Below are positions 2,761 through 60,899 of a DNA stretch of 64,000 bases, piece after piece. Under the pieces are notes generated by a model. That model worked only from the letters and a program-made list of their open reading frames with translations, was not told the origin of the DNA and searched no databases. The position numbers were made by a program, and so were the translations under genes. The stretch's first letter is position 1, and every line of letters starts with the position of its first letter. Source of the stretch: a phage; assembly GCA_027337125.1 (NCBI GenBank), contig GCA_027337125.1_3057.1; one strand, written 5' to 3'.

Positions 2761-2797
2761 ACAACTATCAACTACTGATACGGATTTGGAGAATGAA

Positions 2798-3034
2798 ATG
2801 AAAATTGTTATGGGATGCTTAGCAGTTTGTTTAGTTGCATTAGCAGCAGTTCCATTTGTTAGTGTTGAAAATGATACCCAACCTGTGATTGAATCTAGCA
2901 CTGTTATTCACACTAATGGTAAAATATCAGTTAAAATTGATGATAATCTTCATGTGAATACAAATGGATCTTTAGGTGTGCAAATAGGTAATACCTGCAT
3001 AAGCACTATTGGAGTAATTACTACTTGCATTTGA
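2798..3034 (+). CDS. Small secreted/membrane protein (N-terminal hydrophobic signal-like segment)
   Basis: ATG 2798 preceded by GGAG; track ORF 2786 uses TTG and is less likely; position between 43 and imm. Confidence 0.55.
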   Translation: MKIVMGCLAVCLVALAAVPFVSVENDTQPVIESSTVIHTNGKISVKIDDNLHVNTNGSLGVQIGNTCISTIGVITTCI

Positions 3035-3044
3035 GGAAATTATT

Positions 3045-3425
3045 ATGAAAATCGCTATTTTGGTTATTGCATTAGGTCTTACTGGTTGTGTAGCTCAAGG
3101 ACCGGTAGTAAATCAGTCTGATGTAGGAAAAATTGTAAACTGTTCAAGCAAGTTTTATAATCCTAATGTCAAGTGTTATAAAGAAGCTCCAAAACAGACA
3201 GTAGAACAAATGCAGGCGAATTTTGACGAAGCTATTCGTCCAGATGAATCTGCCCAAGCATATCGTAATTCAGATGTGATTACACGTGAAGAAAAAATTG
3301 AAAACTACTGTGCTGAACTTTGGGCAAATTGGGCTAATAATTACCAATGGCGTACCGGTAAAAATGCTCCGATGGAGTATGTAGTAAATTCTTATAATTC
3401 ATGCGTAAAAAATTTGACTAAGTGA
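3045..3425 (+). CDS. Putative lipoprotein (126 aa; signal peptide with LTGC lipobox)
   Basis: ATG with GAGG RBS; MKIAILVIALGLTGC N-terminus. Confidence 0.6.
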   Translation: MKIAILVIALGLTGCVAQGPVVNQSDVGKIVNCSSKFYNPNVKCYKEAPKQTVEQMQANFDEAIRPDESAQAYRNSDVITREEKIENYCAELWANWANNYQWRTGKNAPMEYVVNSYNSCVKNLTK

Positions 3426-3432
3426 GGAAAAT

Positions 3433-3684
3433 ATGGAAACTTTAGTAGCAGGTTCAATTTTTATGGTTTTAGTTTCAGGTGTGTTGGCTATTATTATATA
3501 CATGCTTCCTTGGTTCATTGCCTTGATGCGTGGGTCAAAATCGACAGTAGGAATCTTTTTTACATCTTTACTGTTTAACTGGTCAATCATTGGTTGGTTT
3601 ATTACATTTATTTGGTCAATTGCGGGTGAAACTAAAAAGTCAACACAGCCAAATCAAGTAATTATCATCAGAGAGAAGGAATGA
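3433..3684 (+). CDS. imm: Immunity to superinfection membrane protein Imm (83 aa)
   Basis: 83-aa two-TM protein at the position of T4 imm between 43 and 42; GAGG RBS. Confidence 0.8.
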   Translation: METLVAGSIFMVLVSGVLAIIIYMLPWFIALMRGSKSTVGIFFTSLLFNWSIIGWFITFIWSIAGETKKSTQPNQVIIIREKE

Positions 3685-3830
3685 AAAGCAAAATTTTAGC
3701 AGTATTGCTTTTAATCTTGATGATTATAATAAGTATATACTATAGTGTAACGGTTCCTCTTATGATTCCAACTATTATTTTAGGTTGGGGTTTATTACTG
3801 TTACAAGTTAAATATGAATGTATCAATTGA
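3681..3830 (+). CDS. Small hydrophobic membrane peptide (49 aa), not in ORF track
   Basis: ATG overlaps imm stop (ATGA); uninterrupted hydrophobic ORF fills the imm-42 gap; ends just before 42 RBS. Confidence 0.4.
   Translation: MKSKILAVLLLILMIIISIYYSVTVPLMIPTIILGWGLLLLQVKYECIN
3707..3730 (+). promoter_or_regulatory. Candidate MotA-dependent middle promoter upstream of gene 42 (MotA box TGCTTTTA, -10 TATAAT 3725-3730)
   Basis: TGCTT box about 18 nt upstream of a TATAAT hexamer. Confidence 0.35.
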
Positions 3831-3837
3831 GGTTTAA

Positions 3838-4578
3838 ATGATTAATGATTCTTTGACAGTTGAAGAAATCCGTCTTCATTTGGGAATTGCATTAAAGGAA
3901 AAAGATTTCGTAATTGATAAAACTGGTGTTAAAACTATTGAAATTATTGGCGCATCATTTGTAGCAGATGAACCGTTTATTTTTGGCGCTCTTAATGATG
4001 AATACATTCAGCGTGAACTTGAATGGTACAAGTCTCAAAGTCTGTTTGTTAAAGATATTCCAGGCGAAACGCCAAAGATTTGGCAACAGGTAGCATCTTC
4101 TAAAGGTGAAATTAACTCGAATTATGGTTGGGCTATCTGGTCAGAAGATAACTATGCCCAGTATGATATGTGTTTAGCTGAACTTGGTCAAAATCCTGAT
4201 TCTCGCCGCGGTATCATGATTTATACTCGTCCATCCATGCAGTTTGACTACAACAAAGATGGTATGTCAGATTTCATGTGTACGAATACAGTACAGTACC
4301 TGATTCGTGATAAGAAAGTCAATGCAGTAGTAAGCATGCGTTCAAATGACGTGGTCTTTGGATTCCGTAATGATTATGCATGGCAAAAATACGTACTAGA
4401 TAAATTAGTATCTGATTTGAATGCAGGTGATTCAACTCGTCAGTATAAAGCAGGTTCCATTATATGGAATGTTGGAAGCCTTCATGTGTATTCTCGTCAT
4501 TTTTATTTGGTTGACCATTGGTGGAAAACTGGCGAAACTCATATTGCGAAAAAAGATTATAACGGTGAGTGGAAATGA
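3838..4578 (+). CDS. 42: dCMP hydroxymethylase gp42 (246 aa)
   Basis: Translation matches T4 gp42 in sequence and length; thymidylate-synthase-like fold motifs. Confidence 0.93.
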   Translation: MINDSLTVEEIRLHLGIALKEKDFVIDKTGVKTIEIIGASFVADEPFIFGALNDEYIQRELEWYKSQSLFVKDIPGETPKIWQQVASSKGEINSNYGWAIWSEDNYAQYDMCLAELGQNPDSRRGIMIYTRPSMQFDYNKDGMSDFMCTNTVQYLIRDKKVNAVVSMRSNDVVFGFRNDYAWQKYVLDKLVSDLNAGDSTRQYKAGSIIWNVGSLHVYSRHFYLVDHWWKTGETHIAKKDYNGEWK

Positions 4579-5417
4579 TTCAATTCGTAATTCCAAGCTA
4601 TCAACGTGTAGGGGCAGTTTCTGCCCTTGATATGTTTCCGACTGATTATGAACCTCATATTGTAGTACGTAAACACGAAGAAAAAGCTTATTATGACGCT
4701 TATGGGTCTAGAGCTAAAATTATAACTATTCCTGATGATGTTAATGGAATTGCTGGAACTCGTAAAGCAATTACTGATATGTATGCAGGTCAACGAATCT
4801 GGATGATTGACGATGATACTACGATTCGTATGAGTTCAATACGAAAGAGAGACGATAAACGGCGCGTAGATAAAATTAATCAATTAACTCGTGAACAGTT
4901 CTATGAATTGATTCAATACGTTGAAGATGCCATGGATTGCGGGTATTATCATGGCCATGCTCGTCTACCAATTTTTAAAATTACTTCATCTTGGGGTAAT
5001 TATCGTGAAAACTCATATGGATTCACGAATACGTGGTATGACCTCGGAAAACTTACGACAGAACAAATTGGGTATGGAAAAATTGATTTATGCGAAGATA
5101 TGTATGCATTTCTCAATTTAATTAATCAAGGTTATCCGCATTTGGCCTTGTTCAAATATCTAGTTGTATCTGGAAAATCACACGCTCCCGGTGGGTGTAG
5201 TTCAATTCGTAGTAATTCTAAACATAATAGAGCGCTTGAGCAAATCAATAGAGAGTTTCCAGAGCAAGCTCGTTGGAAAACTTCTAATATTGAAAAACGA
5301 AAATCGTTGGGTGAAGAAGATGAACCATTAAAGGTTCTTCGCATGTGTGTTTCGCGTAAAGAAAAATCAGAAGCATTTCATAAGTTTAATGCTATTCATC
5401 CAATAGCAGTTGATTAA
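4575..5417 (+). CDS. GT2-like (GT-A fold) glycosyltransferase, putative HMC-DNA sugar transferase at the beta-gt locus
   Basis: ATG overlaps gene 42 stop (ATGA); N-terminal IPSYQR and DDD (DxD) motifs typical of family 2 glycosyltransferases; 280 aa, unlike T4 beta-gt (351 aa). Confidence 0.6.
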   Translation: MIQFVIPSYQRVGAVSALDMFPTDYEPHIVVRKHEEKAYYDAYGSRAKIITIPDDVNGIAGTRKAITDMYAGQRIWMIDDDTTIRMSSIRKRDDKRRVDKINQLTREQFYELIQYVEDAMDCGYYHGHARLPIFKITSSWGNYRENSYGFTNTWYDLGKLTTEQIGYGKIDLCEDMYAFLNLINQGYPHLALFKYLVVSGKSHAPGGCSSIRSNSKHNRALEQINREFPEQARWKTSNIEKRKSLGEEDEPLKVLRMCVSRKEKSEAFHKFNAIHPIAVD

Positions 5418-5494
5418 TGCCTAAATTTATTGTGTTATAATTACTCTATCTTTAACCAGTGAGGAAAATATAATGATGCCTATGGAAAAAATGA

Positions 5495-6676
5495 ATGTCT
5501 ATTGCAGATTTAAAATCCCGTTTGATTAAAGCTTCCACTTCTAAAATGACTGCTGAACTGACTACATCTAAATTCTTTAATGAAAAGGATGTAATTCGTA
5601 CAAAAATCCCAATGCTTAATATTGCTATTTCTGGTGCGATTGATGGCGGTATGCAGTCTGGTTTAACTATTTTCGCAGGGCCTTCTAAACACTTTAAATC
5701 AAATATGTCTTTGACTATGGTTGCGGCATATTTGAACAAATATCCTGATGCAGTTTGTCTATTCTATGATAGCGAATTTGGTATTACTCCAGCTTATTTG
5801 CGATCCATGGGAGTTGACCCGGAACGAGTAATTCATACGCCAATCCAGTCAGTTGAACAGCTAAAAATTGATATGGTGAATCAGCTTGAAGCTATTGAGC
5901 GCGGTGAAAAGGTTATTGTATTCATCGACTCAATCGGTAATATGGCTTCTAAGAAAGAAACGGAAGATGCCCTGAATGAAAAATCTGTGGCAGATATGAC
6001 TCGTGCTAAATCACTGAAGTCATTATTCCGTATTGTTACTCCTTACTTTAGCATTAAAAATATTCCGTGTGTTGCGGTTAACCATACAATTGAAACAATT
6101 GAAATGTTTAGTAAAACCGTGATGACAGGTGGTACAGGCGTAATGTATTCGGCTGATACCGTATTCATTATCGGTAAACGTCAGATTAAAGATGGTTCTG
6201 ATCTTCAGGGGTATCAATTTGTTCTAAATGTAGAAAAATCTCGTACTGTTAAAGAAAAAAGTAAATTCTTTATTGATGTTAAATTTGACGGTGGTATCGA
6301 TCCTTATTCTGGATTGTTAGATATGGCTCTAGAATTAGGATTTGTAGTAAAACCTAAAAATGGCTGGTATGCTCGTGAATTTCTTGACGAAGAAACCGGC
6401 GAGATGATTCGCGAAGAAAAATCTTGGCGTGCAAAAGATACCAACTGCACTACATTCTGGGGTCCTTTATTTAAGCATCAACCATTCCGAGATGCTATTA
6501 AACGTGCTTATCAGTTAGGTGCTATTGATAGTAATGAAATTGTTGAAGCTGAAGTTGATGAATTGATTAACTCAAAGGTTGAAAAATTTAAATCTCCAGA
6601 AAGTAAAAGTAAATCAGCTGCTGATTTAGAAACTGACCTCGAGCAGTTAAGTGATATGGAAGAATTTAATGAGTAA
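5495..6676 (+). CDS. uvsX: UvsX recombinase (RecA/Rad51 family)
   Basis: Translation matches T4 UvsX; Walker A-like GPSKHFKS; 393 aa. Confidence 0.93.
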   Translation: MSIADLKSRLIKASTSKMTAELTTSKFFNEKDVIRTKIPMLNIAISGAIDGGMQSGLTIFAGPSKHFKSNMSLTMVAAYLNKYPDAVCLFYDSEFGITPAYLRSMGVDPERVIHTPIQSVEQLKIDMVNQLEAIERGEKVIVFIDSIGNMASKKETEDALNEKSVADMTRAKSLKSLFRIVTPYFSIKNIPCVAVNHTIETIEMFSKTVMTGGTGVMYSADTVFIIGKRQIKDGSDLQGYQFVLNVEKSRTVKEKSKFFIDVKFDGGIDPYSGLLDMALELGFVVKPKNGWYAREFLDEETGEMIREEKSWRAKDTNCTTFWGPLFKHQPFRDAIKRAYQLGAIDSNEIVEAEVDELINSKVEKFKSPESKSKSAADLETDLEQLSDMEEFNE

Positions 6677-12518: not shown

Positions 12519-13037
12519 ATGGCATACTTTAATGAATGTTCACAACTGATTGAAGGCGCTGATAAAGCTCAAAATGAATACTGGGATATTCTCGGTGATG
12601 AAAAAGACCCGCTGCAGGTTATGCTTGATATGCAGAAATCTTTACAGGTTCGTTTAGCTAAAGATAAACCTGAATATAACCGTCATCCTGATGATTTGGC
12701 TACTGCAGGTGAAGTTGTTGATTGGCTACGTAATCAGAAAGATTATATTGACGATGAATTCCGCGAACTTCTGACTTCTCTTGGCGGTATGAGCAATGGT
12801 GAAAAAGATGCATCTGCTGTATGGAAGCCTTGGAAAGCTCAACATGGTGAACGCCGTGAAACTCTAATTACTGATTTGTCTCCACAAGACCAGTTGGAAA
12901 TTAAATTCGAAATGATTGATATTCTTCATTTCGTTCTGAACATGTTCCAAGGTCTCGGCCTTACAGCTGAAGAAATCTTTAAACTTTATTATCTGAAAAA
13001 TGCTGAAAACTTCGCGCGTCAAGACCGAGGTTATTAA
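12519..13037 (+). CDS. 56: dCTPase/dUTPase gp56
   Basis: Matches T4 gp56; ATG 12519 with AAGGA RBS (track start 12504 is TTG). Confidence 0.85.
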   Translation: MAYFNECSQLIEGADKAQNEYWDILGDEKDPLQVMLDMQKSLQVRLAKDKPEYNRHPDDLATAGEVVDWLRNQKDYIDDEFRELLTSLGGMSNGEKDASAVWKPWKAQHGERRETLITDLSPQDQLEIKFEMIDILHFVLNMFQGLGLTAEEIFKLYYLKNAENFARQDRGY

Positions 13038-13081
13038 TGGCTCGTTTATTTAAACGACGACTTAAAAGCCGTGAGAATTAT

Positions 13082-13089
13082 TATAAATA
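13082..13089 (+). promoter_or_regulatory. Late promoter TATAAATA for soc
   Basis: Exact T4 late promoter octamer about 30 nt upstream of soc ATG. Confidence 0.7.
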
Positions 13090-23164: not shown

Positions 23165-23341
23165 ATGCCAATGTATGATTATAAATGCCAATCTGAAGAC
23201 TGCGGGCATGAATATGAAAAAATTAAAAAGATTTCTGAACGAGAAAATGATGTTTGCCCTAAATGTCATCGTTTGTCTACTCGTCGGCCTTCTGCTCCTA
23301 AGCATGTGAATGGTGGTTTTTACGATTTACTTAAAGGGTGA
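23165..23341 (+). CDS. Zinc-ribbon small protein (58 aa; CxxC...CxxC), not in ORF track
   Basis: YKCQSEDCGH ... CPKCH; FmdB-like zinc ribbon pattern. Confidence 0.5.
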   Translation: MPMYDYKCQSEDCGHEYEKIKKISERENDVCPKCHRLSTRRPSAPKHVNGGFYDLLKG

Positions 23342-23343
23342 TT

Positions 23344-23715
23344 ATGTTTAAAATCGGTAAGAAATATCGTGTTCGCGAAGGTGAAGAAAAGAAATATCTA
23401 ATGTCTGCTATTTATAGGAATGGTTCTATTAATGCTGTAATATCTACAAGCGAATTTATCGTTGAAGATATGAAAGGTCATAATGTTACAATGATTAGTA
23501 CAGCATCTGGAAATGATGGAAAAATTCTTCACAGTATGCAGAGTAATGTTCTAATTTATGCTGAAGAATTTGACTTCTTCGAAGAAGTTTCCGAAAATTT
23601 TGATTTTGGATGCACTATCACTATGAAATCTGGCGACCCTCTTTCATTTACGGTTAAAGATGAAAGAAGTCGTTTGAGAATTATTAGTCTTCTTCAAGCC
23701 ATTAAATTTGAGTGA
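23344..23715 (+). CDS. Hypothetical protein (123 aa)
   Basis: ATG 23344 immediately after upstream stop. Confidence 0.55.
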   Translation: MFKIGKKYRVREGEEKKYLMSAIYRNGSINAVISTSEFIVEDMKGHNVTMISTASGNDGKILHSMQSNVLIYAEEFDFFEEVSENFDFGCTITMKSGDPLSFTVKDERSRLRIISLLQAIKFE

Positions 23716-23719
23716 AATT

Positions 23720-23980
23720 ATGAAATATATTAATCGTTCTATCGCAGCATTAGTATTAGCAGTGTCTTTAGCAGGATGTACTGATGCTGATAATGCAACC
23801 AAAGTTTTGTCTTCAAGTGGTTTTACTAATATTGAAATCACTGGATACAATTGGTTCGGTTGCTCTGAAAATGATTTCCAACATACTGGATTTCGCGCTA
23901 TTGGACCTACCGGACAGAAAGTAGAAGGAACCGTATGTTCTGGTCTATTCTTCAAGGATTCGACTATCCGTTTTAAATAA
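23720..23980 (+). CDS. Putative lipoprotein (86 aa; lipobox LAGC)
   Basis: Signal peptide MKYINRSIAALVLAVSLAGC. Confidence 0.55.
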   Translation: MKYINRSIAALVLAVSLAGCTDADNATKVLSSSGFTNIEITGYNWFGCSENDFQHTGFRAIGPTGQKVEGTVCSGLFFKDSTIRFK

Positions 23981-23997
23981 AAGGCCTTCGGGCCTTT
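23980..23997 (+). terminator. UUCG-capped hairpin (AAAGGCC-UUCG-GGCCUUU), terminator-like, upstream of gene 39
   Basis: 7-bp stem, weak U-tract; followed by candidate MotA box AGCTTTA and -10 TATAAT 24017-24022. Confidence 0.45.
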
Positions 23998-24049
23998 AGC
24001 TTTATGATTACCGGAGTATAATATTCCCGAAACCAAACGAGGATAAGTG

Positions 24050-25867
24050 ATGATTAAGAATGAAATTAAAATTCTGAGCGATATTGAACATATCAAAAAG
24101 CGTAGCGGCATGTACATTGGTTCTTCTGCTAATGAAATGCATGAGCGCTTTCTGTTTGGTAAATGGGAAAGTGTTCAGTATGTACCTGGTCTTGTTAAGC
24201 TTATTGATGAAATTATCGATAACTCAGTAGATGAAGGTATTCGTACTAAGTTTAAATTCGCGAATAAAATTAATGTTACTATTAAAAACAATCAAGTAAC
24301 AGTTGAAGATAACGGTCGTGGTATTCCACAAGCGATGGTTAAAACACCTACTGGTGAAGAAATTCCTGGTCCTGTTGCTGCCTGGACTATTCCAAAAGCA
24401 GGTGGTAACTTCGGTGATGATAAAGAACGCGTCACTGGCGGTATGAACGGTGTTGGTTCTAGTTTAACTAACATTTTTTCTGTGATGTTTGTCGGTGAAA
24501 CTGGCGACGGTCAAAATAATATTGTAGTTCGTTGTTCAAATGGCATGGAAAATAAATCATGGGAAACTATTCCTGGAAAATGGAAGGGAACACGTGTTAC
24601 TTTCATTCCTGATTTTATGTCATTTGAAACTAATGAGCTATCTCAAGTTTATCTTGACATTACATTAGATCGCCTCCAGACACTTGCAGTAGTTTATCCT
24701 GATATTCAATTTACCTTTAATGGTAAAAAGGTTCAGGGTAATTTTAAGAAATATGCACGCCAATATGATGAGCATGCTATCGTTCAAGAACAGGAAAATT
24801 GCTCTATTGCGGTTGGTCGTTCACCGGATGGTTTTCGTCAATTAACATACGTCAATAACATTCATACTAAGAATGGTGGTCATCACATTGACTGTGTTAT
24901 GGATGATATTTGTGAAGACCTTATTCCACAAATCAAACGTAAGTTCAAAATTGATGTAACTAAAGCACGTGTTAAAGAATGTTTGACTATCGTTATGTTT
25001 GTCCGTGATATGAAAAACATGCGATTTGATTCTCAAACTAAAGAGCGTTTGACTTCTCCATTTGGTGAAATTCGTAGTCATATTCAGCTTGATGCTAAAA
25101 AGATTTCACGTGCTATTTTAAATAATGAAGCAATTTTAATGCCAATTATTGAAGCTGCTTTGGCTCGTAAATTGGCGGCAGAAAAAGCAGCAGAAACTAA
25201 AGCAGCTAAAAAGGCTTCTAAAGCTAAGGTTCATAAACATATTAAAGCGAATCTTTGTGGTAAAGATGCTGACACTACTCTTTTCTTGACTGAGGGTGAT
25301 TCGGCTATTGGGTATCTTATTGATGTTCGTGATAAAGAACTTCATGGTGGTTATCCATTACGTGGTAAAGTTCTCAACAGCTGGGGTATGTCATATGCTG
25401 ATATGCTTAAAAATAAAGAACTGTTTGATATTTGCGCAATCACTGGATTAGTTCTTGGTGAAAAAGCCGAAAACTTGAATTATCATAATATTGCTATTAT
25501 GACTGACGCTGACCACGATGGTCTAGGAAGCATTTATCCTTCTCTGCTCGGATTTTTTAGTAATTGGCCAGAACTGTTTGAACAAGGAAGAATTCGCTTT
25601 GTCAAAACTCCTGTAATCATCGCTCAGGTCGGTAAAAAACAAGAATGGTTTTATACAGTCGCTGAATATGAGAGTGCCAAAGATGCTCTACCTAAACATA
25701 GCATCCGTTATATTAAAGGACTTGGCTCTTTGGAAAAATCTGAATATCGTGAGATGATTCAAAACCCAGTATATGATGTTGTTAAACTTCCTGAGAATTG
25801 GAAAGAGCTTTTTGAAATGCTCATGGGAGATAATGCTGACCTTCGTAAAGAATGGATGAGCCAGTAG
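24050..25867 (+). CDS. 39: DNA topoisomerase II large subunit gp39, unsplit form (605 aa)
   Basis: GHKL ATPase, TOPRIM (EGDSA, DADHDG), KGLG and C-terminal LMGD motifs all in one ORF; no separate gene 60. Confidence 0.9.
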   Translation: MIKNEIKILSDIEHIKKRSGMYIGSSANEMHERFLFGKWESVQYVPGLVKLIDEIIDNSVDEGIRTKFKFANKINVTIKNNQVTVEDNGRGIPQAMVKTPTGEEIPGPVAAWTIPKAGGNFGDDKERVTGGMNGVGSSLTNIFSVMFVGETGDGQNNIVVRCSNGMENKSWETIPGKWKGTRVTFIPDFMSFETNELSQVYLDITLDRLQTLAVVYPDIQFTFNGKKVQGNFKKYARQYDEHAIVQEQENCSIAVGRSPDGFRQLTYVNNIHTKNGGHHIDCVMDDICEDLIPQIKRKFKIDVTKARVKECLTIVMFVRDMKNMRFDSQTKERLTSPFGEIRSHIQLDAKKISRAILNNEAILMPIIEAALARKLAAEKAAETKAAKKASKAKVHKHIKANLCGKDADTTLFLTEGDSAIGYLIDVRDKELHGGYPLRGKVLNSWGMSYADMLKNKELFDICAITGLVLGEKAENLNYHNIAIMTDADHDGLGSIYPSLLGFFSNWPELFEQGRIRFVKTPVIIAQVGKKQEWFYTVAEYESAKDALPKHSIRYIKGLGSLEKSEYREMIQNPVYDVVKLPENWKELFEMLMGDNADLRKEWMSQ

Positions 25868-25898
25868 TTTAATTATACCACAAGGATGTGGTATAATT
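25866..25898 (+). promoter_or_regulatory. Hairpin-promoter element: -35-like GTTTAA followed by perfect 12-bp inverted repeat AATTATACCACA/TGTGGTATAATT
   Basis: Right arm contains extended -10 TGGTATAAT; loop agga. Confidence 0.5.
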
Positions 25899-25922
25899 AA
25901 TTGGGCAAATGAGGATATTGAA

Positions 25923-26126
25923 ATGAAATCATATAAAGTAAATTTAGAACTTTTTGATAAAGCAGTTCATCGAGAATATAGAATCATTCAACGCTTTTTC
26001 GATATGGGAGAAGCCGAAGAGTTTAAAAACCGCTTTAAGGATATTAGAGATAAAATTCAATCCGACACTGCAACTAAAGATGAACTACTAGAAGTTGCTG
26101 AAGTTATTAAACGCAATATGAATTAA
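25923..26126 (+). CDS. Hypothetical protein (67 aa), rIIA.1 position
   Basis: GAGG RBS. Confidence 0.55.
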
Positions 26127-26136
26127 TGAGGAAATT

Positions 26137-28314
26137 ATGATTATCACCACTGAAAAAGAAACAATTCTTGGTAATGGTGCTAAATCAAAAGCATTTAGCA
26201 TCGCAGCAAATCCTAAAGTATTTAAAATTCTGTCATCTGATTTGTATACAAACAAGATTCGCGCAGTGGTTCGTGAATTGATTACCAACATGATTGATGC
26301 CCATGCTCTTAATGGAAATCCTGAAAAATTTATCATTCAAGTCCCAGGACGATTAGATCCGCGATTTGTTTGCCGAGATTTTGGTCCAGGTATGAGCGAT
26401 TTTGATATTCAGGGTGATGATAATTCTCCTGGGTTGTATAATTCATACTTCAGTTCATCTAAGGCTGAATCTAACGATTTCATTGGTGGATTTGGTTTAG
26501 GTTCTAAATCTCCGTTTAGTTATACTGATACGTTTAGTATTACTTCGTATCATAAAGGTGAAATTCGTGGTTATGTAGCTTACATGGATGGTGATGGTCC
26601 GCAGATTAAACCTACATTCGTAAAAGAAATGGGTCCAGATGATAAAACTGGTATTGAAATCGTAGTTCCAGTTGAAGAAAAAGACTTTAGAAACTTTGCT
26701 TATGAAGTTTCTTATATCATGCGACCATTCAAAGATTTGGCTATCATTAATGGTCTTGACCGCGAAATTGATTATTTTCCGGATTTTGATGACTATTACG
26801 GTGTAAATCCAGAAAGATACTGGCCAGATCGTGGTGGATTGTACGCTATCTATGGTGGTATTGTTTATCCTATTGACGGTGTTATTAGAGACCGTAACTG
26901 GTTAAGCATTCGCAATGAAGTGAATTATATTAAGTTTCCAATGGGTTCACTTGATATTGCTCCATCGCGTGAGGCTCTTTCGCTGGATGATCGTACTCGT
27001 AAAAATATTATTGAGCGTGTTAAAGAGCTCAGTGAGCGGGCGTTTAATGAAGATGTAAAACGATTTAAAGAATCTACATCTCCTCGTCATACATACCGTG
27101 AATTGATGAAGATGGGGTATTCTGCTCGAGATTATATGATTAGTAATTCAGTCAAATTCACGACTAAAAATCTGTCATATAAGAAGATGCAGAGCATGTT
27201 TGAACCTGACAGTAAGTTATGCAATGCAGGAGTTGTGTATGAAGTAAATCTTGACCCTCGACTGAAACGCATTAAACAAAGTCATGAAACTTCAGCCGTT
27301 GCATCAAGTTATCGTCTGTTTGGTATTAATACGACAAAAATTAATATTGTTATTGATAATATTAAAAATCGTGTTAATATTGTCCGTGGATTAGCACGTG
27401 CATTAGATGATAGCGAATTTAATAACACTTTGAATATTCATCACAATGAACGCCTTTTGTTTATTAATCCGGAAGTAGAATCGCAGATTGATTTGCTTCC
27501 TGATATTATGGCAATGTTTGAAAGTGATGAAGTTAACATTCATTATCTGTCAGAAATTGAAGCTTTAGTTAAAAGTTATATTCCAAAGGCAGTAAAAAGT
27601 ACAGCTCCTCGTCCTAAAACTGCTACTGCATTTAAGTTTGAAATTAAAGACGGGCGCTGGGAAAAAGAGGAATTGTTTACGCTCACATCAGAAGCAGATG
27701 AAATTACTGGTTATGTAGCATACATGCATCGTTCTGATATTTTCTCTATGGATGGTACTACATCGCTTTGTCATCCATCTACGAGTATTTTGACTCGTAT
27801 GGCTAATCTTATTGGCATTAATGAATTTTATGTTATTCGTCCGCTTTTGCAGAAAAAGGTAAAAGAACTTGGTCAGTGCCAATGTATTTTTGAAACTCTA
27901 CGTGATTTATATGTAGATGCTTTTGATGATGTAGATTATGATAAGTATGTAGGTTATTCAAGTTCAGCTAAACGATATATTGATAAAATTATCAAGTATC
28001 CTGAGTTAGATTTTATGATGAAGTACTTCAGTGCAGATGAAGTTTCTGAAGAATATACACGACTCGCTAATATGGTTAGTTCATTGCAGGGTGTATATTT
28101 TAATGGTGGAAAAGATACCATCGGTCATGACATCTGGACAGTAACTAATCTTTTTGATGTATTATCAAATAATGCTTCAAAAAACAGTGATAAAATGGTT
28201 GCTGAGTTTACCAAGAAATTCCGTATTGTTTCTGACTTCATCGGATATCGTAACTCTTTGAGTGATGATGAAGTTTCCCAAATCGCTAAAACTATGAAGG
28301 CCCTTGCGGCCTAA
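26137..28314 (+). CDS. rIIA: rIIA protein (membrane-associated, GHKL-like ATPase fold)
   Basis: 725 aa; N-terminus [14 protein letters not shown] matches T4 rIIA. Confidence 0.93.
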
Positions 28315-32626: not shown

Positions 32627-33955
32627 ATGCAACTGAATAATCGTGATTTAAAAAGTATCATTGATAATGAAGCATTGGCTTATGCTATGTACACGGTTGA
32701 AAATCGTGCTATCCCAAATATGATTGACGGATTTAAGCCAGTCCAACGATTTGTTATTGCTCGAGCTCTTGATTTGGCACGAGGAAATAAAGATAAGTTT
32801 CACAAACTTGCTTCTATTGCAGGTGGTGTAGCTGACCTTGGATATCATCATGGTGAAAACTCTGCACAAGATGCAGGTGCTTTGATGGCTAACACTTGGA
32901 ATAATAATTTTCCTCTGTTAGATGGTCAAGGAAACTTTGGTTCTCGTACCGTCCAAAAAGCAGCAGCAAGTCGTTATATTTTTGCTCGTGTAAGTAAAAA
33001 TTTCTATAACGTATATAAAGATACTGAATATGCTCCGGTACATCAAGATAAAGAACACATTCCGCCTGCTTTCTATTTGCCTATTATTCCTACTGTTCTT
33101 CTTAATGGCGTTTCCGGTATTGCAACTGGTTATGCAACTTACATTCTTCCTCATAGTGTTTCTTCTGTCAAGAAAGCTGTACTGCAAGCTCTTCAAGGAA
33201 AGAAAGTAACTAAACCGAAGGTAGAATTCCCAGAATTTCGTGGTGAAGTCGTTGAAATTGATGGGCAATATGAAATTCGTGGAACATATAAGTTTACTTC
33301 ACGAACTCAAATGCATATCACTGAGATTCCGTATAAGTATGATCGTGAAACTTATGTGAGTAAAATTTTAGACCCGCTTGAAGATAAAGGCTTCATTACG
33401 TGGGATGATGCTTGTGGTGAGCACGGCTTTGGCTTCAAAGTTAAATTCCGTAAAGAATACTCTTTGAGCGATAATGAAGAAGAACGACACGCAAAAATTA
33501 TGAAAGACTTCGGGTTGATTGAGCGTCGTTCTCAGAATATTACGGTTATTAATGAGAAAGGAAAACTACAAGTTTACGATAACGTAGTCGATTTAATTAA
33601 AGACTTTGTTGAAGTTCGTAAAACTTATGTCCAAAAACGAATTGATAACAAAATCAAAGAAACTGAATCAGCATTTCGTTTAGCCTTTGCCAAGGCACAT
33701 TTCATTAAGAAAGTAGTTTCAGGTGAAATCGTTGTGCAGGGTAAAACTCGCAAAGAACTGACTGAAGAACTTTCTAAAATTGATATGTATTCTTCTTATG
33801 TTGATAAACTAGTTGGTATGAATATTTTTCATATGACTTCTGATGAAGCAAAGAAACTTGCTGAAGAAGCTAAAGCTAAAAAAGAAGAAAACGAATATTG
33901 GAAAACTACTGATGTAGTTACCGAATACACCAAAGATTTAGAGGAAATCAAATGA
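32627..33955 (+). CDS. 52: DNA topoisomerase II medium subunit gp52 (GyrA-like)
   Basis: 442 aa; matches T4 gp52. Confidence 0.9.
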   Translation: MQLNNRDLKSIIDNEALAYAMYTVENRAIPNMIDGFKPVQRFVIARALDLARGNKDKFHKLASIAGGVADLGYHHGENSAQDAGALMANTWNNNFPLLDGQGNFGSRTVQKAAASRYIFARVSKNFYNVYKDTEYAPVHQDKEHIPPAFYLPIIPTVLLNGVSGIATGYATYILPHSVSSVKKAVLQALQGKKVTKPKVEFPEFRGEVVEIDGQYEIRGTYKFTSRTQMHITEIPYKYDRETYVSKILDPLEDKGFITWDDACGEHGFGFKVKFRKEYSLSDNEEERHAKIMKDFGLIERRSQNITVINEKGKLQVYDNVVDLIKDFVEVRKTYVQKRIDNKIKETESAFRLAFAKAHFIKKVVSGEIVVQGKTRKELTEELSKIDMYSSYVDKLVGMNIFHMTSDEAKKLAEEAKAKKEENEYWKTTDVVTEYTKDLEEIK

Positions 33956-37632: not shown

Positions 37633-37640
37633 TATTTATA
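37633..37640 (-). promoter_or_regulatory. Late promoter TATAAATA for t
   Basis: Exact octamer on - strand about 20 nt upstream of t ATG. Confidence 0.7.
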
Positions 37641-37658
37641 ACTGAGAGGTATTATCGT

Positions 37659-38432
37659 TTAAATCCAGGAGCCGTAGATCGTGCCTGTAGCACCCCATGA
37701 CGGTGAACTTCCGAATACTGCTCTGCCAGGAGCACCACCGCCAGATCTAGATAAGTGATTACCCCATCCATCTCCGCCCCGACCTCCAGCATCACCGCCA
37801 TTGCCTCCGCCGAATTGGGAAGTGTAGCCGGCACCGCCCGGCGCGTCATAACTAGCATTACCACCCGGCCAATTAACGCCGCCTCCGCCGATGCCAAATG
37901 GTCTACCGCCACCGCCACCTGCTGTAGCATTTGGCGCCCAGCTATTCTTTAATGACACTGCACCACCACCGCCACCGCCTGATGCAATAACGCCATAGTT
38001 CCAAATACGAAGTCTTCCGCCGATATCATTTTGGATTACATCGCCGCCATTTGTGCCTGGGTTTCCATTTACGCTACCGTTACCACCTCGTCCCCACATA
38101 TGAACTCCACCATGAATATTCAAAGTAACATATTCATTTGGTGTATCTCCGTACATGAAGAATAAAGGAACGTCTCTAGAATATGATACCAAATTTCCAG
38201 TGATATTAAACACTATAGGTGCACTACCTGCCTCAAAACATCTATCTCGGAACCATTGACCATTGAAGTTATGGTCTGCTCCAAGTGTGTGAATTACTTC
38301 AACAGATCGACCTATCATATTACTCATCCAAAATGGAGTACCCATTCTTAATCGTTGGGCCGCGCCGCCCATCCAATTTTGTCCTGTATTAACTACTGCA
38401 GACGATCCTACCCACGGTCCTGTTACTGCCAT
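37659..38432 (-). CDS. 38: gp38 tail-fiber adhesin of the T2/T6 type (glycine-rich motifs separating variable segments)
   Basis: 257 aa; conserved N-terminus [20 protein letters not shown]; multiple poly-Gly stretches; GGAGG RBS. Confidence 0.88.
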
Positions 38433-38444
38433 ATAAACCTCCAA

Positions 38445-38458
38445 GGGGCCGAAGCCCC
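38445..38458 (-). other. UUCG hairpin (GGGGC-UUCG-GCCCC) between 37 and 38, immediately upstream of the gene 38 SD
   Basis: Perfect stem and tetraloop on - strand RNA; no U-tract. Confidence 0.55.
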
Positions 38459-38463
38459 TCTTA

Positions 38464-41400
38464 TTATTTTAACAATGATTTAACTAATGCTTTAAGTTCT
38501 TCAATTTCTGATTTAAGTTCCGCAATTTCTGCAGTATGCTCATTGATTGCAGCTGTATTTAAACCAATTACACCGTTATAGTTCAAACGAAGTAAAGCTT
38601 CGCCATCAGGGTCACCTTCAACTAATTCAGGCAAAATAGCTTGAACTTCTTGAGCTATCAAACCGGCGTTTGGTTCCCATTTCTGATTACCTTCTTCATC
38701 TAGGCCTCGCTTCTGCATATAAGTGTAACCATTAATTTTTGAAAGCTTCTCAGAAGCATTTTCAAATTTAACTAGGTCCTTTTTGACACGAATATCAGAG
38801 CGGACATAAACATCGCGGACATATGTTGAATAGTTGTCATTCGCCTGAACTAAATGACCATGAGAAATAACTGCTTTGCCAACTTCTGTCCACAAAGCAC
38901 CGTTTGTCTCCCAAAGGCCAGGATGAGAATGATAAGATGAAGACCATGAAGCTATATGCACTCCATTTGCAACCATATTGATTCGGCCGTCACCACCGTG
39001 AACTAATCCAGTATCATTATCACCAATAACAAGACACGGTCCAGTCCACACCGGGTCGCCACCACCAGCTGATAATCTTGCTCCGGTTTTAACCATGTTA
39101 GGAACATACATAACTCCATTGTGGTGAAATTCATAGATAGCTTGTGGGTCAGAACCGTTTTCCTGGTTACCTACACAAATAATACCTTGTGCCCAGTTAT
39201 TAGTAATGCGTCGCATACCAAAATCTACGCCGGAAAAATATCCTTCGTTAGTAATACCAGATTTTCCTTTAATAATAGGATAATAGCAGTCATTGCTGAC
39301 GGATCCAAAATCTACAAATATAGGAGCTTCTAAACCCCATTGGTCACCCCAGGCGCCAGATTTATGCGCAACCCATTGTGTACCGTTTATATGAAGGCGG
39401 TCTCTATTAAAATTAAATGTTCCTTGACCTTGAGGAGAAAGCGATATTTCGCCATTATTTGTTATGTATACACCGCCTTGTGTAATGTAACTATAAAAAC
39501 CTAGACCATTGTCGCCGCCGCCTTTGCCTATATACCAGTTACCTGTACCACCTACATCACTACGGATGTGCGATGAAGCACCCACGCCTGCAGTTAAAAC
39601 AAGGGCATCATTTCCAGCAGATAAAGTCAACTTACCGGTCATCGTATCGCCTTCTTTAGCAACACGAGTAGCTATCGCATCGCGAATATTTGTAGTGTCT
39701 CCCGCAGAAGTAAACGATTTCCAAATATCTGAGAAAATATTACCATTGCGAGCAATAGTAGCTTCACCGCCGCCGACCTGAACGTTATCGGGGAAATTAA
39801 CTGTACCATCAGCATTAAATCTTGATGTATGGCCCTGTGAACCATCTTCTTTCAGATGATGAATAACGAATGTACCCGAATTAATTTCAGTACCTAAAGA
39901 CCAAACGGCTTTACCATTTAAAAACTTCTGTTTAACAATAGGATAATATTTGCTTATAGCATCATCATCAATTTCCTGGAAAATAGGAGCCGCTTGAACA
40001 TATTGAATATCATAACCACCAGCGCCTGCGCCATGACCAGTAAATTTAATATAGCCGTTTGCCGCGAACGTATTGTAACTTGATTGTAAATCTGGAATAG
40101 TAACTTTACCAGTATCTAAAGCTATACTAAACGGGCGAAGTGGACCGATATCACCATTTTTACCTTCACCGTAAGCAGTTGGAATAATATGAAGACTGCC
40201 TTCTGAACGTCTAAAAATGGCTCCGTAATCATTATTCCAAATACGAAGACCATTAACAGCATTTGTAGTGATTTCGCCAAGGGTGTGAACTGCTCGGTCA
40301 ACCCAAATATCCTTTTTTGCAATAATATTTTCGTTAATTGTCTGTTGACCATTTAATACGGCTTCAACTGTATTATCTTTATTTCGTTGAATATAATGCA
40401 TCCATCCAATATCATCAGAAATTTCCATGACATTTTTACGGGTGCCTTCACTTGGATTAGTAAAAGTATTTCCCCAAACAGCTATATACATGTTATCAAC
40501 GGAGCTTTGACCCATGGTATAGCCTTTAAACATTAAAGTTGAATTATTATTTCTACCATCAATATTAACAGAACCGCCAATAACATCAATATTACCTGGA
40601 GTAACTAACAAACCGCCGTGAGTATTAATGTTTGTAGTACCTTTACCGCGGAAATAGTGATGATAATTACCGCCTTGATAATATCCTAAAAGAGTCTGAC
40701 CGTCACCGTATGCGTTATTATCATGGTAAGTAACAACAGTGGCTAATGCATAGTTTTCAGTCGGAGGAGTAGTTAAATCTGTTCCATTAGTAGAATATCC
40801 AGCTACAAATTTTCTTAGGCTAGTTGTTTCGCTAGGGCTAAATAAAAATGTTTTCGTTCCATTATTGACGCTGAAATAATATCCATCCTGATGCCATTTT
40901 AGCCCGGTATCATTATCGCCAAGAGAAATTGAAGCAGTCCCTAATTCAGAGTATCCTTTATTGCCACCAGGAGTACCAACAGAAATAGAATGGCCTGCTT
41001 TCAATCCACCGGACCAGGTAAACGACCAAAGATAGGCATCTAACCCGTCACCGGCGTACCAGGTTATCCCGTCGTTATCTTTAACTTCATGGAATATACC
41101 AGATCCTACGGCATTTCGCATAACACGGAGGTGGTTAATAGCCGTTTCGCTTTCTGCCAATGGAGTGTTATTTGCTAATGAAGATATATCATAATCGCCC
41201 GTCTTCTTCCCATCTGTAATAACTTTATCGGTCAGAATTTGTGGAGACGAAATAGATTTCCATGCTGATACTTCAGGTGAAGTAAATAGGCCACTGCCTG
41301 AAAATGCATAAGTGCTTTCATCACCAGCGGCGTAGTCTTGAACCCTGATATTAAGTACTTGTGTAGTTAAACCATCATTAGCCGGGGCATAAATGATTCC

Positions 41401-41793
41401 GCGTTCGCGACTATTGCCATCGAAAAAACGAACATGTGCTGTACCTGAACTTTTTGTAATAAGTTCACCGCCTTCGGTCATAATCTGCCCGGCGGCAATA
41501 ATATCGCGAGTTACTCGAGCAATACCAGTTAAATTAAAATTACCTGTCTGAGTGAAAGTGCCATTTAAAGTATAATCACCAGTTTGATTATAGTTTCCTG
41601 TATGAATAACATTCCCGTCAATGCTACCGCCTTTAGCAAAACCCAGATCAATAATATTTCCTTGGTCGTCTTTAGTAAAAAGTACGCGGTCTTTTAAGTT
41701 TATAGCCAATTCACCTTCGGCTAATACTGAAGCGGCAGGACGTGCTCCTGCAGTTTTGCTTCTTTTAAATTGTATTTGTTTTAAAGTAGCCAT
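38464..41793 (-). CDS. 37: Long tail fiber distal subunit gp37 with C-terminal intramolecular-chaperone-like domain
   Basis: 1109 aa; N-terminus matches T-even gp37; C-terminal RSDIRVKKD motif and coiled-coil tail resemble autoproteolytic chaperone domains. Confidence 0.9.
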
Positions 41794-53690: not shown

Positions 53691-53703
53691 TTATAGGTGC
53701 TAA

Positions 53704-54252
53704 ATGAAACAATACCAAGATTTAATTAAAAATATCCTTGAAAACGGCTATGAAACCGATGACCGAACAGGCACAGGAACAATTGCTTTGTTTGGTACTA
53801 AATTGCGTTGGGATTTAACTAAAGGTTTTCCTGCAGTAACAACAAAAAAGCTCGCCTGGAATGCTTGTATTTCTGAGTTATTGTGGTTCTTATCAGGAAG
53901 TACTAACGTAAATGACCTGCGTCAGCGTACTCACGGGTCTTTAATTGCAGGGAAAACGATTTGGGATGAAAATTACGAAAAACAAGCAAAAGATTTAGGA
54001 TATCATAGCGGTGAGCTTGGCCCAATTTATGGAAAACAATGGCGTGATTTTGGCGGTGTAGACCAAATTGTAGAAGTTATTGATCGTATTAAAACATTTC
54101 CTAATGATAGACGCCAAATTGTTTCTGCGTGGAATCCGGCAGAACTTAAGCAGATGGCATTACCACCTTGTCATATGTTCTATCAGTTTAATGTTCGTAA
54201 TGGCTATTTGGATTTGCAGTGGTATCAACGATCAGTAGATGTTTTCTTGGGT
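53704..54252 (+). CDS. td: Thymidylate synthase, exon 1 (ends at ...DVFLG; 5' splice site after GGT)
   Basis: Matches ThyA N-terminal half; interrupted exactly where the T4 td intron sits. Confidence 0.93.
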
Positions 54253-55268
54253 TAATTGAGGCCTGAGTATAAGGTGACTTATACTTGTAATCTATCTAAA
54301 CGGGGAACCTCTCTAGTAGACAATCCCGTGCTAAATTGTAGGACTGCCCTTTAATAAATACTTCTATATTTAAAGAGGTATTTATGAAAAGCGGAATTTA
54401 TCAGATTAAAAATACTTTAAACAATAAAGTATATGTAGGAAGTGCTAAAGATTTTGAAAAGAGATGGAAGAGGCATTTTAAAGATTTAGAAAAAGGATGC
54501 CATTCTTCTATAAAACTTCAGAGGTCTTTTAACAAACATGGTAATGTGTTTGAATGTTCTATTTTGGAAGAAATTCCATATGAGAAAGATTTGATTATTG
54601 AACGAGAAAATTTTTGGATTAAAGAGCTTAATTCTAAAATTAATGGATACAATATTGCTGATGCAACGTTTGGTGATACATGTTCTACGCATCCATTAAA
54701 AGAAGAAATTATTAAGAAACGTTCTGAAACTGTTAAAGCTAAGATGCTTAAACTTGGACCTGATGGTCGGAAAGCTCTTTACAGTAAACCCGGAAGTAAA
54801 AACGGGCGTTGGAATCCAGAAACCTATAAGTTTTGTAAGTGCGGTGTTCGCATACAAACTTCTGCTTATACTTGCAGTAAATGCAGAAATCGTTCAGGTG
54901 AAAATAATTCATTCTTTAATCATAAGCATTCAGACATAACTAAATCTAAAATATCAGAAAAGATGAAAGGTAAAAAGCCTAGTAATATTAAAAAGATTTC
55001 ATGTGATGGGGTTATTTTTGATTGTGCAGCAGATGCAGCTAGACATTTTAAAATTTCGTCTGGATTAGTTACTTATCGTGTAAAATCTGATAAATGGAAT
55101 TGGTTCTACATAAATGCCTAACGACTATCCCTTTGGGGAGTAGGGTCAAGTGACTCGAAACGATAGACAACTTGCTTTAACAAGTTGGAGATATAGTCTG
55201 ATCTGCATGGTGACATGCAGCTGGATATAATTCCGGGGTAAGATTAACGACCTTATCTGAACATAATG
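54253..55268 (+). mobile_element. Group I self-splicing intron in td (1016 nt) carrying I-TevI
   Basis: Starts TAATTGAGGCCTGAGTATAAGGTGAC, ends ...CATAATG; length identical to T4 td intron; splicing restores the ThyA frame. Confidence 0.93.
54384..55121 (+). CDS. I-TevI: Homing endonuclease I-TevI (GIY-YIG) encoded within td intron
   Basis: 245 aa; MKSGIYQIKNTLNNKVYVGSAKDFEKRW GIY-YIG domain and C-terminal zinc-finger/HTH DNA-binding region; AAGAGG RBS. Confidence 0.95.
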   Translation: MKSGIYQIKNTLNNKVYVGSAKDFEKRWKRHFKDLEKGCHSSIKLQRSFNKHGNVFECSILEEIPYEKDLIIERENFWIKELNSKINGYNIADATFGDTCSTHPLKEEIIKKRSETVKAKMLKLGPDGRKALYSKPGSKNGRWNPETYKFCKCGVRIQTSAYTCSKCRNRSGENNSFFNHKHSDITKSKISEKMKGKKPSNIKKISCDGVIFDCAADAARHFKISSGLVTYRVKSDKWNWFYINA

Positions 55269-55580
55269 CTACCATTTAACATCGCGAGCTATGCTGCTCT
55301 TTTGCATATTGTTGCTGACATGTGTGAACTAGTTCCAGGTGATTTGATATTCTCTGGTGGTAATACACACATTTATTCTAACCATATTGAGCAATGCAAA
55401 GAGATATTAAATAGAACCCCTATGGACCTATGTAAACTCAGTATCAATTGGCCTAATGGATTCAGTCAATACGATACTGAAACTCAAATGTATTGGTTAA
55501 CTGAATATATGACAGCACGAGATTTCGTTCTCAAAGATTATCAGTCCCATGGTGTCTTGAAAGGAAAAATGGCAGTGTAA
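55269..55580 (+). CDS. td: Thymidylate synthase, exon 2
   Basis: LPFNIASYAALLHIV... continues the ThyA active-site region; joined product 286 aa. Confidence 0.93.
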   Translation, partial: LPFNIASYAALLHIVADMCELVPGDLIFSGGNTHIYSNHIEQCKEILNRTPMDLCKLSINWPNGFSQYDTETQMYWLTEYMTARDFVLKDYQSHGVLKGKMAV

Positions 55581-55603
55581 TTTTAATTTAATTGTGAGGA
55601 TAT

Positions 55604-55867: not shown

Positions 55868-56147
55868 ATATAAATCCGACTTTGATGTTAATATTCACCG
55901 TGGTACATTTTGGGGAAATTACGTCGGTAAAGATGCTGGCAGCCGGGAGGCTGCCATTGAATTATTCAAAAAAGATTTTATACGTCGAATTAAATCCGGA
56001 GAAATAACTAAAGCACATTTAGAGCCTTTACGTGGAATGAGGCTAGGATGCACATGTAAACCGAAGCCGTGTCATGGTGATATAATAGCTCATATAGTTA
56101 ACCGATTGTTTAAAGACGATTTTCAAGTTGAGGACTTATGCAATTAA
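55821..56147 (+). CDS. Hypothetical protein (start uncertain; alternative GTG 55857) with CxC...C-H cluster
   Basis: ORF overlapping upstream gene; ends overlapping nrdA start. Confidence 0.45.
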
Positions 56148-58402: not shown

Positions 58403-59133
58403 TGAATTATCAAAAAATCTATAATGACCTAATTTCCCGAGCTCAGGCTCGGGAACCTTTATCTGAATATAAAGAGACACATCATATAGTCCCTAAATGC
58501 ATGGGAGGTTCTGATGATAAAGAAAATTTAGTTGAATTAACGGCTAGAGAACATTTTATAGCGCATCTATTACTATGTAAGATAAATGAAGGCCATTTTG
58601 GGCTTGCCTCTGCGTTAACGTTAATGGCAACAGATAAAGCTGGTAATAGAATTAATAACAGATTGTATAGCTTGCACAGAAAATTATTTGCTAAAGCTAA
58701 TTCTGATTTCTTTAAGAAATATTGGAAAAATAATCCTCATCCTAGAGGAATGTTAGGCAAGCATCATAAAAACGAAACTAAACAACATGTATCAAACGTG
58801 AATAGGTATGCATGCCCATCTATCGAAATACATAAATTCTCATTAGATGGGGATTTCATAGAAACCTTTCACTCTATTGCGGCAGCGTCCAGGTCAGTTA
58901 ATGGAAACGGGTCAAATATCAAATATTGTGCTGAGGGTAAATTTCAATATGCCTATGGATTTAGATGGTCATATCAACTTGATACAAAGTTTGATAAAAT
59001 ACAACCAAGAGATTATAAAGGAATCCGCGGTAAGAAATGGATTAATAACGGAAGTGAATGCACGCTTATAGGTAAAGATGATATTATACCGCCAGGTTGG
59101 AAACGCGGCAGAATTTTAAAGAGGAAAAATTAA
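58402..59133 (+). CDS. mobE: Free-standing HNH homing endonuclease MobE between nrdA and nrdB
   Basis: 243 aa; HNH motif ETHHIVPKCMGGSDDKENLVELTAREH; ATGA/TAATG coupling to both neighbours. Confidence 0.8.
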   Translation: MNYQKIYNDLISRAQAREPLSEYKETHHIVPKCMGGSDDKENLVELTAREHFIAHLLLCKINEGHFGLASALTLMATDKAGNRINNRLYSLHRKLFAKANSDFFKKYWKNNPHPRGMLGKHHKNETKQHVSNVNRYACPSIEIHKFSLDGDFIETFHSIAAASRSVNGNGSNIKYCAEGKFQYAYGFRWSYQLDTKFDKIQPRDYKGIRGKKWINNGSECTLIGKDDIIPPGWKRGRILKRKN

Positions 59134-59808
59134 TGTCTACAGTTTTTAATACAAATCCAGTTAATATTTTGACTGAGCCAATGTTTTTTGGTTCTGGATT
59201 AGGTTTAGCTCGATATGATATTCAACGGCATCGAGTATTTGAAGAACTTATTGAGAAGTCTTTATCATTTTTCTGGCGTCCTGAAGAAGTAAACTTAATG
59301 ATGGATGCTGCACAATTTAATAAACTTCCTCAGTATCAGCAAAATATTTTTACTAATAACCTGAAGTATCAATCACTTTTGGATAGCATTCAGGGTCGTG
59401 CACCGTCTGCTGTACTTATGTCATTAATTTCAGACCCAAGCCTTGATACATGGGTTGCAACATGGACATTCAGTGAAACTATTCACTCTCGTTCGTATAC
59501 TCATATTATGCGAAATCTTTATACTGATCCATCAAAGGTATTTGATGAGATTGTATTAGATAAAGCTATTATGAAACGTGCTGAATCTATTGGTCGCTAT
59601 TACGATGATGTTCTGATTAAAACCCGCGAATGGGAAAATGCTAAAGAATTTGTAGAACTAGCTAAAGAATCTCCTGATGCTGTCTTTCGTTTAAACCGAG
59701 CTATTAAACAAGAAGCCGAAGCTAAACGTGCTTTAATGAAATCTCTTTACCTCTGTTTGCACGTTATTAATGCCTTAGAAGCTATTCGTTTTTATGTATC
59801 TTTTGCGT
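59133..59808 (+). CDS. nrdB: Ribonucleotide reductase small subunit NrdB, exon 1 (ends ...RFYVSFA + T of Cys codon)
   Basis: Matches RNR R2 N-terminal part; AGAGGA RBS; frame interrupted at conserved SFAC site. Confidence 0.9.
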
Positions 59809-59894
59809 AAAATGCGCCTTTAAACGGTAACGTTTATCGAAAACTCCTTTAATTGCTGGAAAGTCCTTTATAGGAAAACTAGCAGCCAAGGTTT

Positions 59895-59926
59895 TGCTTG
59901 CACCTTTAATTAGTATAATATAAATA
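59895..59926 (+). promoter_or_regulatory. Stacked candidate middle (MotA box TGCTTGCA + TATAAT) and late (TATAAATA 59919-59926) promoters inside nrdB intron upstream of I-TevIII
   Basis: Exact late octamer; TGCTT box 19 nt upstream of TATAAT. Confidence 0.5.
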
Positions 59927-59953
59927 TGATTATACTTTTAAGAGGATGCACAA

Positions 59954-60763: not shown

Positions 60764-60899
60764 TCTTCGGACGTAGGGTCAAGCGACTCGAAATGGGGAG
60801 AATCCCTCCGGGATTGTGATATAGTCTGGTCTGCATGGTAACATGCAGCAGTTCATAAGAGAACGGGTTGAGAATTAGCGAGCTCAATCGAACATAACG

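Follow-up and report, generated by a model that had tools for sequence, protein, structure and literature searches.

Results

The large-subunit gene and its surroundings

An unsplit gene for the topoisomerase II large subunit (gene 39, T2/T6 type; "60plus39" in relatives) lies on the + strand at 24050..25867 of the window, the whole 64,000-nt stretch of phage DNA that was analysed, and is identified by its open reading frame (ORF), by Pfam domains, and by colinearity with T4 gp39 plus gp60. The ORF extends from an ATG at 24050 to a stop codon at 25865-25867 and comprises 1,818 nt encoding 605 aa. The ORF caller places the start one codon upstream, at GTG 24047 (606 aa); the ATG at 24050 is favoured, as gp39 of T4, T2, and T6 all open with MIKNEIK. 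A Shine-Dalgarno sequence, GAGGA, can be read on the same strand at 24040..24044, 5 nt 5′ of this ATG. Inspection of the + strand further upstream shows a GC-rich hairpin (AAGGCC-TTCG-GGCCTT, 23981-23996) followed by GCTT (23999-24002), a spacing of 14 nt, and TATAAT (24017-24022), the latter arrangement fitting the T4 middle-promoter pattern. The hairpin and the GCTT/TATAAT element (23999-24022) are a putative terminator and a putative middle promoter, respectively, and in a relative (OL960580) a terminator and a middle promoter are annotated at positions equivalent to 23981..24022. A promoter and terminator consensus scan of 23300..26300 returned fewer promoter-like sites than did shuffled sequences, and the upstream signals of the large-subunit gene are taken from the sequence reading and the relative's annotation, not from that scan. 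Upstream of these signals, between the 39.2 and 39.1 homologues, a 125-aa ORF (23338..23715, +) without any Pfam match is annotated as a hypothetical protein in relatives; it has no T4 counterpart, with window positions 23346..23718 remaining unaligned to T4.

The encoded protein contains a GHKL ATPase (Pfam HATPase_c, residues 47-149, E=1.9e-9) with the N-box and G-box motifs EIIDNSVDE (54-62), DNGRGIP (87-93), and GGMNGVG (130-136), a transducer (Pfam DNA_gyraseB, residues 250-384, E=1.5e-13) whose QTK loop reads QTKERL (329-334), and a TOPRIM C-terminal associated domain (Pfam TOPRIM_C, residues 519-604). The type IIA motifs EGDSA (415-419), PLRGK (436-440), DADHDG (486-491), KGLG (556-559), and LMGD (591-594) all occur in one frame with no internal stop, and both the catalytic Glu of TOPRIM (in EGDSA) and its DxDxD (in DADHDG) fall within the single 605-aa ORF. 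The Pfam Toprim model gave no match to the 605-aa protein at E=0.001; the TOPRIM domain is called from these motifs and because the protein aligns over its full length with chains of T6 gp39, Topo II, and ParE. The initial annotation had described one 605-aa ORF containing the ATPase, TOPRIM, and the KGLG/LMGD region, a description that is borne out by the Pfam domains and motifs found in this single frame.

Downstream, the large-subunit gene is followed by rIIA.1 (25923..26126, +; 67 aa), which matches Pfam T4_RIIA1 (PF24210) over its full length (E=1.4e-33) and holds the same position as in T4, and by rIIA (26137..28314, +; 725 aa), an ORF colinear with T4 rIIA that provides the downstream synteny anchor. 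It had been pointed out that only a 67-aa ORF lies between the large-subunit gene and rIIA, which is true, that ORF being rIIA.1; however, the observation is in itself no evidence for the absence of gene 60, because T4 too has rIIA.1 between gene 60 and rIIA. The partner gene for the large subunit, gene 52, is found approximately 6.8 kb downstream (32627..33955, +) and encodes the 442-aa medium subunit of topoisomerase II (GyrA-like, DNA breakage-reunion), as indicated by Pfam DNA_topoisoIV (E=2.6e-76) and colinearity with T4 gene 52.

The junction in comparison with T4

At the protein level, residues 1-473 align with T4 gp39 residues 1-473 (465/473 identical, 98%) and residues 472-605 with T4 gp60 residues 27-160 (128/134 identical, 96%). 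At the DNA level, the alignment to T4 breaks at window position 25467/25468 (T4 3911) and resumes at 25532 (T4 2793), with T4 carrying 1,117 nt (3910..2794) in place of the window's 64 nt (25468..25531). These 64 nt on the + strand, ENLNYHNIAIMTDADHDGLGS, which were delimited by the alignment break against T4 and by the codon view, are ordinary coding DNA (codons 473/474-494) and constitute the empty MobA site. Between the alignment breaks, only 46 nt (25476..25521) match T4's internal homologous copy of the target region, at 80%, while the flanks are 95.4% (upstream of the site) and 97.6% (downstream) identical to T4 in nucleotide sequence. The large-subunit ORF is continuous through residue 473, in the region where the T4-type split occurs (AA 466-473), and no DNA lies between the gp39-like and gp60-like halves, hence no mobA HNH gene is present there.

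The site includes the TOPRIM acidic motif D486-A-D-H-D490-G491, followed by L492 (25505..25525, +), as established from the codon listing, comparison with T4, and the motif positions. Where T4 reads GAT GGA, the 50-nt gap, and TTA GGT TCT, the window reads GAT GGT CTA GGA AGC, straight through and in frame; the codon for Gly491, after which the T4 gap would follow, is GGT (25520-25522), with CTA GGA directly next. The take-off GGA, the UAG, the hairpin, and the coding gap are all absent at the hop position. T4 and the window have in common the homologous flanking coding sequence, the neighbouring genes, and the enzyme family. Absent here is everything that the T4 insert brings: gp39 is extended by 43 aa, gp60 gains some 30 new residues at its N-terminus, and the insert further contributes the mobA pseudogene/60.1, a target-region copy that has diverged, and the 50-nt gap, with GGA as both take-off and landing codon. 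Alignment with T4 gp39 plus gp60 and with T2 gp39, which had been suggested as a check, returns a colinear, single uninterrupted gene.

Two further observations concern the T4 sequence itself. Divergence from T4 is unequal upstream and downstream of the homing site: identity per 15 codons is 93-100%, and mostly 98-100%, across 25532..25867, and 91-99%, with a mean of about 95%, across 24050..25467. In addition, codons 326-328 of gene 39 in the T4 record (NC_000866) give MRLIRQTK, where the window, T2, T6, and five MobA-positive relatives have MRFDSQTK; the T4 reading derives from paired compensating 1-nt indels just 5′ of the conserved QTK loop (alignment columns 977-984), and it may be an old sequencing error.

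Relationship to T2 and T6

The closest characterized proteins are those of T6 and T2. T6 gp39 (PDB 8ylu, chain 8ylu_C) is likewise 605 aa in length, is colinear end to end, and is identical at 604/605 residues, differing, in this protein-level comparison, only at residue 526 (Q in the window protein, H in the PDB chain). T2 gp39 (AP018813, 2447..4264), whose gene has served as the recipient in MobA experiments, is encoded by the same 1,818-nt ORF and is identical at 603/605 residues (substitutions F70L and T173D), with 95.6% nucleotide identity. T2 further has in common with the window the unsplit junction and the neighbours 39.1, rIIA.1, and rIIA. The two DNAs differ by three synonymous changes within the 64-nt site, with GCC, GAC, and CAC in the window versus GCT, GAT, and CAT in T2 at codons 473, 486, and 489, and by five across codons 466-500. 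Three subunits are reported for T4 topoisomerase II alone among type IIA enzymes, those of T2 and T6 having two, gp39 and gp52 (PMC11461880, Nat Commun 2024).

Searches for the cassette and for gene 60

Neither the T4 50-nt gap (at up to 15 mismatches) nor the core of the take-off hairpin (at up to 5 mismatches) has a match on either strand of the whole 64-kb window. Comparison of the window by tblastn and tblastx with gp60.1, the annotated MobA fragment, and the C-terminal extension of gp39 and N-terminal extension of gp60 produced chance-level matches only (best E 0.011), and the C-terminal 134 aa are encoded only once in the 64 kb. The one real mobA-like match in the window is a different HNH gene, of the MobE type, at about 58.4 kb. 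The proposed search for the bypass sequence thus turns up neither gap nor hairpin, nor any insert peptide, and the claim that the window lacks the mobA/gene 60 insertion holds both at the locus, by alignment and codons, and across the 64-kb window, by the cassette searches. The accompanying statement that there is no gene 60 stands in so far as a separate gene 60 and its bypass are absent, but not in so far as the equivalent coding sequence is present, as codons 472-605.

An Rfam scan of the whole window at gathering thresholds returned no match and offers no support for a curated recoding or intron family. The same scan missed the td (~53701..55600) and nrdB (~59100..61400) intron regions, which align contiguously with T4; presumably, these ORF-bearing group I introns were overlooked by the Intron_gpI model.

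Distribution of the unsplit form

A 241-nt junction query (25380..25620) that contains the split point as well as the hop point, with at least 80% coverage in one place required, was found uninterrupted in 456 of 499 matching phage records, including T2, RB32, RB7, and ime09 ("gp60plus39"). The T4 insert was found in 43 records, in one place each (T4 strains, RB55, RB59, HY01, HY03, e11/2, and others). At the protein level, 1941 of 2020 phage records encode residues 421-605, which likewise span the split and hop points, at a single location; in these counts, as in those for the junction, some phages appear twice, through paired GenBank and RefSeq entries. Among the matches listed, the one-place examples come from Klebsiella, Enterobacter, Acinetobacter, Aeromonas, Vibrio, Agrobacterium, and Campylobacter phages, and the exceptions, RB55 and Acinetobacter phage DLP2 among them, are phages with a split gene. 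RB14, RB32, ime09, and most Tequatrovirus "60plus39" or "parental" large subunits (Topo2L) have the same arrangement and annotation, with 97-98% DNA identity over 23700..26400 and with differences from the window that are scattered and mostly synonymous. The closest complete genomes (96-98% identical) are annotated with one "DNA topoisomerase large subunit" or "gp60plus39", and none is among the 43 insert-bearing records. The unsplit arrangement is already known, being the usual and long-recognised state of T-even phages other than T4.

Genomic context and other differences from T4

The window is Tequatrovirus (T4-like coliphage) DNA, colinear with T4 from gene 43 (T4 29809) to pseT.2 (T4 135357) across the rIIA/rIIB map origin, with aligned blocks of 86-98% identity and a dozen or so small indels. 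The nearest records are vB_EcoM_P8, BMB16, and GEP001 over 24 kb (96.3-96.4%), and SA21RB and ECP2301 over 23700..26400 (98.2%); no identical record exists in the phage collection, in which the best matches reach 98.2% over 2.7 kb and 96.4% over 24 kb.

Several other loci depart from T4. A free-standing HNH + NUMOD1 endonuclease of 243 aa (58402..59133, +; ORF and Pfam) occupies the MobE position between nrdA (56138..58402) and nrdB; it is longer than T4's annotated 141-aa MobE, and its 3′ half (58571..59132) is unaligned to T4. In the nrdB region, an HNH_3 ORF of 269 aa (59954..60763, +; ORF and Pfam) has the appearance of an undamaged I-TevIII within the nrdB intron; relative to T4, the window gains 477 nt at 60026..60503, precisely the place at which I-TevIII is marked in the T4 record as defective through a deletion in its proximal half. 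T4 segA and beta-glucosyltransferase are absent (4560..5507), and a TAGT-family glycosyltransferase ORF of 282 aa (4569..5417) is found there instead; segF and gene 61.2 of T4 are also absent (13000..13082 and 9611/9612). Because segA, beta-glucosyltransferase, segF, and 61.2 are missing and the TAGT ORF is present, the homing endonuclease set, as predicted from gene content, is different from that of T4, and the DNA glucosylation pattern is probably T2/T6-like. The tail-fibre tip is of the T2/T6 type, with 37640..41607 unaligned to T4; here a Gp38 adhesin of 261 aa with glycine-rich runs (37659..38444, −; PF05268, E=1e-82) adjoins the 1109-aa ORF of gp37 (38464..41793, −).

Discussion

The comparison with T4 can be read against what has been published on the MobA element. 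This element, of 1097-1106 nt, inserts at AA 466-473 of Topo2L and ends just after D490/G491; it deletes 55-75 nt of the topoisomerase gene (64 nt in HY01), in place of which it supplies a homologous region of its own, with 67-81% identity to the parental sequence (Manning & Atkins, bioRxiv 10.1101/2022.08.31.505936). Each clade also has its "parental" genomes, which lack the element and show 96-99% identity in the topoisomerase gene (Manning & Atkins, bioRxiv 10.1101/2022.08.31.505936). The window fits the parental side of this description, with its break after codon 473, its 64-nt segment, the 80% match to the T4 homologous region, and the position of D490/G491. Nicking of the unsplit T2 gene by MobA was reported by Bonocora et al. 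(2011), as summarised by Manning & Atkins (bioRxiv 10.1101/2022.08.31.505936) and Edgell et al. (2010; PMC2988022), and in the same experiments MobA drove joint homing of the split and the gap, the gap protecting the occupied allele (via Manning & Atkins; Edgell et al., 2010, PMC2988022). By homology with T2, 25468..25531 may hold the MobA nicking target, and the T2 experiments suggest that the empty site would be susceptible to MobA homing.

Taken together, the data support a model of the locus in which the 605-aa large subunit is made as one polypeptide by ordinary, uninterrupted translation, such that a single chain carries the GHKL ATPase and the transducer along with the entire TOPRIM domain (E415 together with D486/D488/D490). 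Joined by gp52, this chain would then form a phage type IIA topoisomerase of two subunits (A2B2-type), as in T2 and T6. By analogy with the assays and structures of the T6 enzyme, with which the large subunit is identical at 604/605 residues, both this subunit composition and ATP-dependent DNA relaxation by a gp39(2)gp52(2) enzyme may be expected. The locus represents the unoccupied, or "parental", target of the MobA homing-endonuclease cassette which, in T4 and a minority of its relatives, splits the gene into 39 and 60 and brings with it the 50-nt coding gap; recoding is neither needed nor possible at the window's large-subunit gene. Nothing in the data contradicts the unsplit reading, and we are very nearly certain of it as a whole, namely a T2/T6-type large subunit that is conventionally translated, forms a two-subunit enzyme with gp52, and retains an empty MobA site.

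The initial annotation had further called the arrangement ancestral and uninterrupted. As regards the arrangement, this is supported by sequence comparison with outgroups, because distant T4-like phages and the cellular homologues are continuous there (GyrB, ParE, and Topo II all align across the junction) and because the cassette is mobile. That this lineage has itself always been unsplit is only probable, as split and unsplit alleles are interleaved in the gene tree, which was built on gene 39 nt 1-1418 of the window, T4, T2, five more MobA-positive phages, and three unsplit relatives. In this alignment the window clusters with SA21RB, ime09, and P8, all of them unsplit (97.7-98.1%), yet HY01, which carries MobA, is 97.5% identical to the window and T4 (MobA-positive) pairs with T2 (MobA-negative); with such interleaving and such small differences, the clustering is not decisive. 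An ancestor with the MobA/bypass cassette could thus have preceded the present state, the intact gene having been restored by recombination with an unsplit co-infecting relative. The interleaving in the gene 39 alignment implies frequent gain, loss, and recombination at the locus, both interleaving and cassette loss in other clades have been described (Manning & Atkins, bioRxiv 10.1101/2022.08.31.505936), and a clean reversion by recombination leaves no mark. However, the nearest neighbours of the window at the large-subunit locus are all unsplit, the 64 nt of the site belong to the T2 "parental" type rather than the T4 internal homologous type, no trace of the cassette-encoded extensions is found in the window, and MobA homing pushes empty sites toward occupancy and not the reverse (Manning & Atkins; Edgell et al., 2010, PMC2988022), such that a secondary origin of the unsplit state appears unlikely. 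It is more doubtful still that the empty site is a MobA-resistant or reverted allele rather than a passive ancestral state; were this so, the synonymous changes near the nick site at codons 473, 486, and 489 might lower cleavage by MobA, and the lineage would stay unsplit despite co-infection with MobA-positive phages.

The remaining alternatives leave the locus as described and question its completeness. In principle, a gene 60-type ORF standing by itself, complete with bypass element, could lie beyond the 64-kb window, in the rest of a genome of about 167 kb. However, each of the 43 records matching the T4 insert query carries it in exactly one place, under topoisomerase and mobA annotations; in all six records inspected that place is the gene 39 locus, and none of the closest complete genomes to the window contains it. 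A second copy of the C-terminal region would moreover be redundant, the full region already being contained in the 605-aa ORF, and the chance of such a distant gene 60 is accordingly put as vanishingly small. Just as improbable is that the ORF owes its continuity to faulty assembly or sequencing, such as a collapsed insertion, as the same 1,818-nt ORF and junction occur in hundreds of independently sequenced phages and, at 604/605 residues, the protein matches T6 gp39, which has already been expressed, purified, and solved structurally.

The unsplit T2/T6-type reading bears chiefly on annotation. The gene is properly labelled as a full-length topoisomerase II large subunit (60plus39), and not as a gene 39 that lacks its gene 60, and no recoding event is to be annotated there. 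The locus provides a further example of an unoccupied MobA target, of use solely as a comparison sequence for MobA homing and for the origin of the T4 gene 60 bypass. In mixed infections, the phage is predicted to be a recipient of the cassette.
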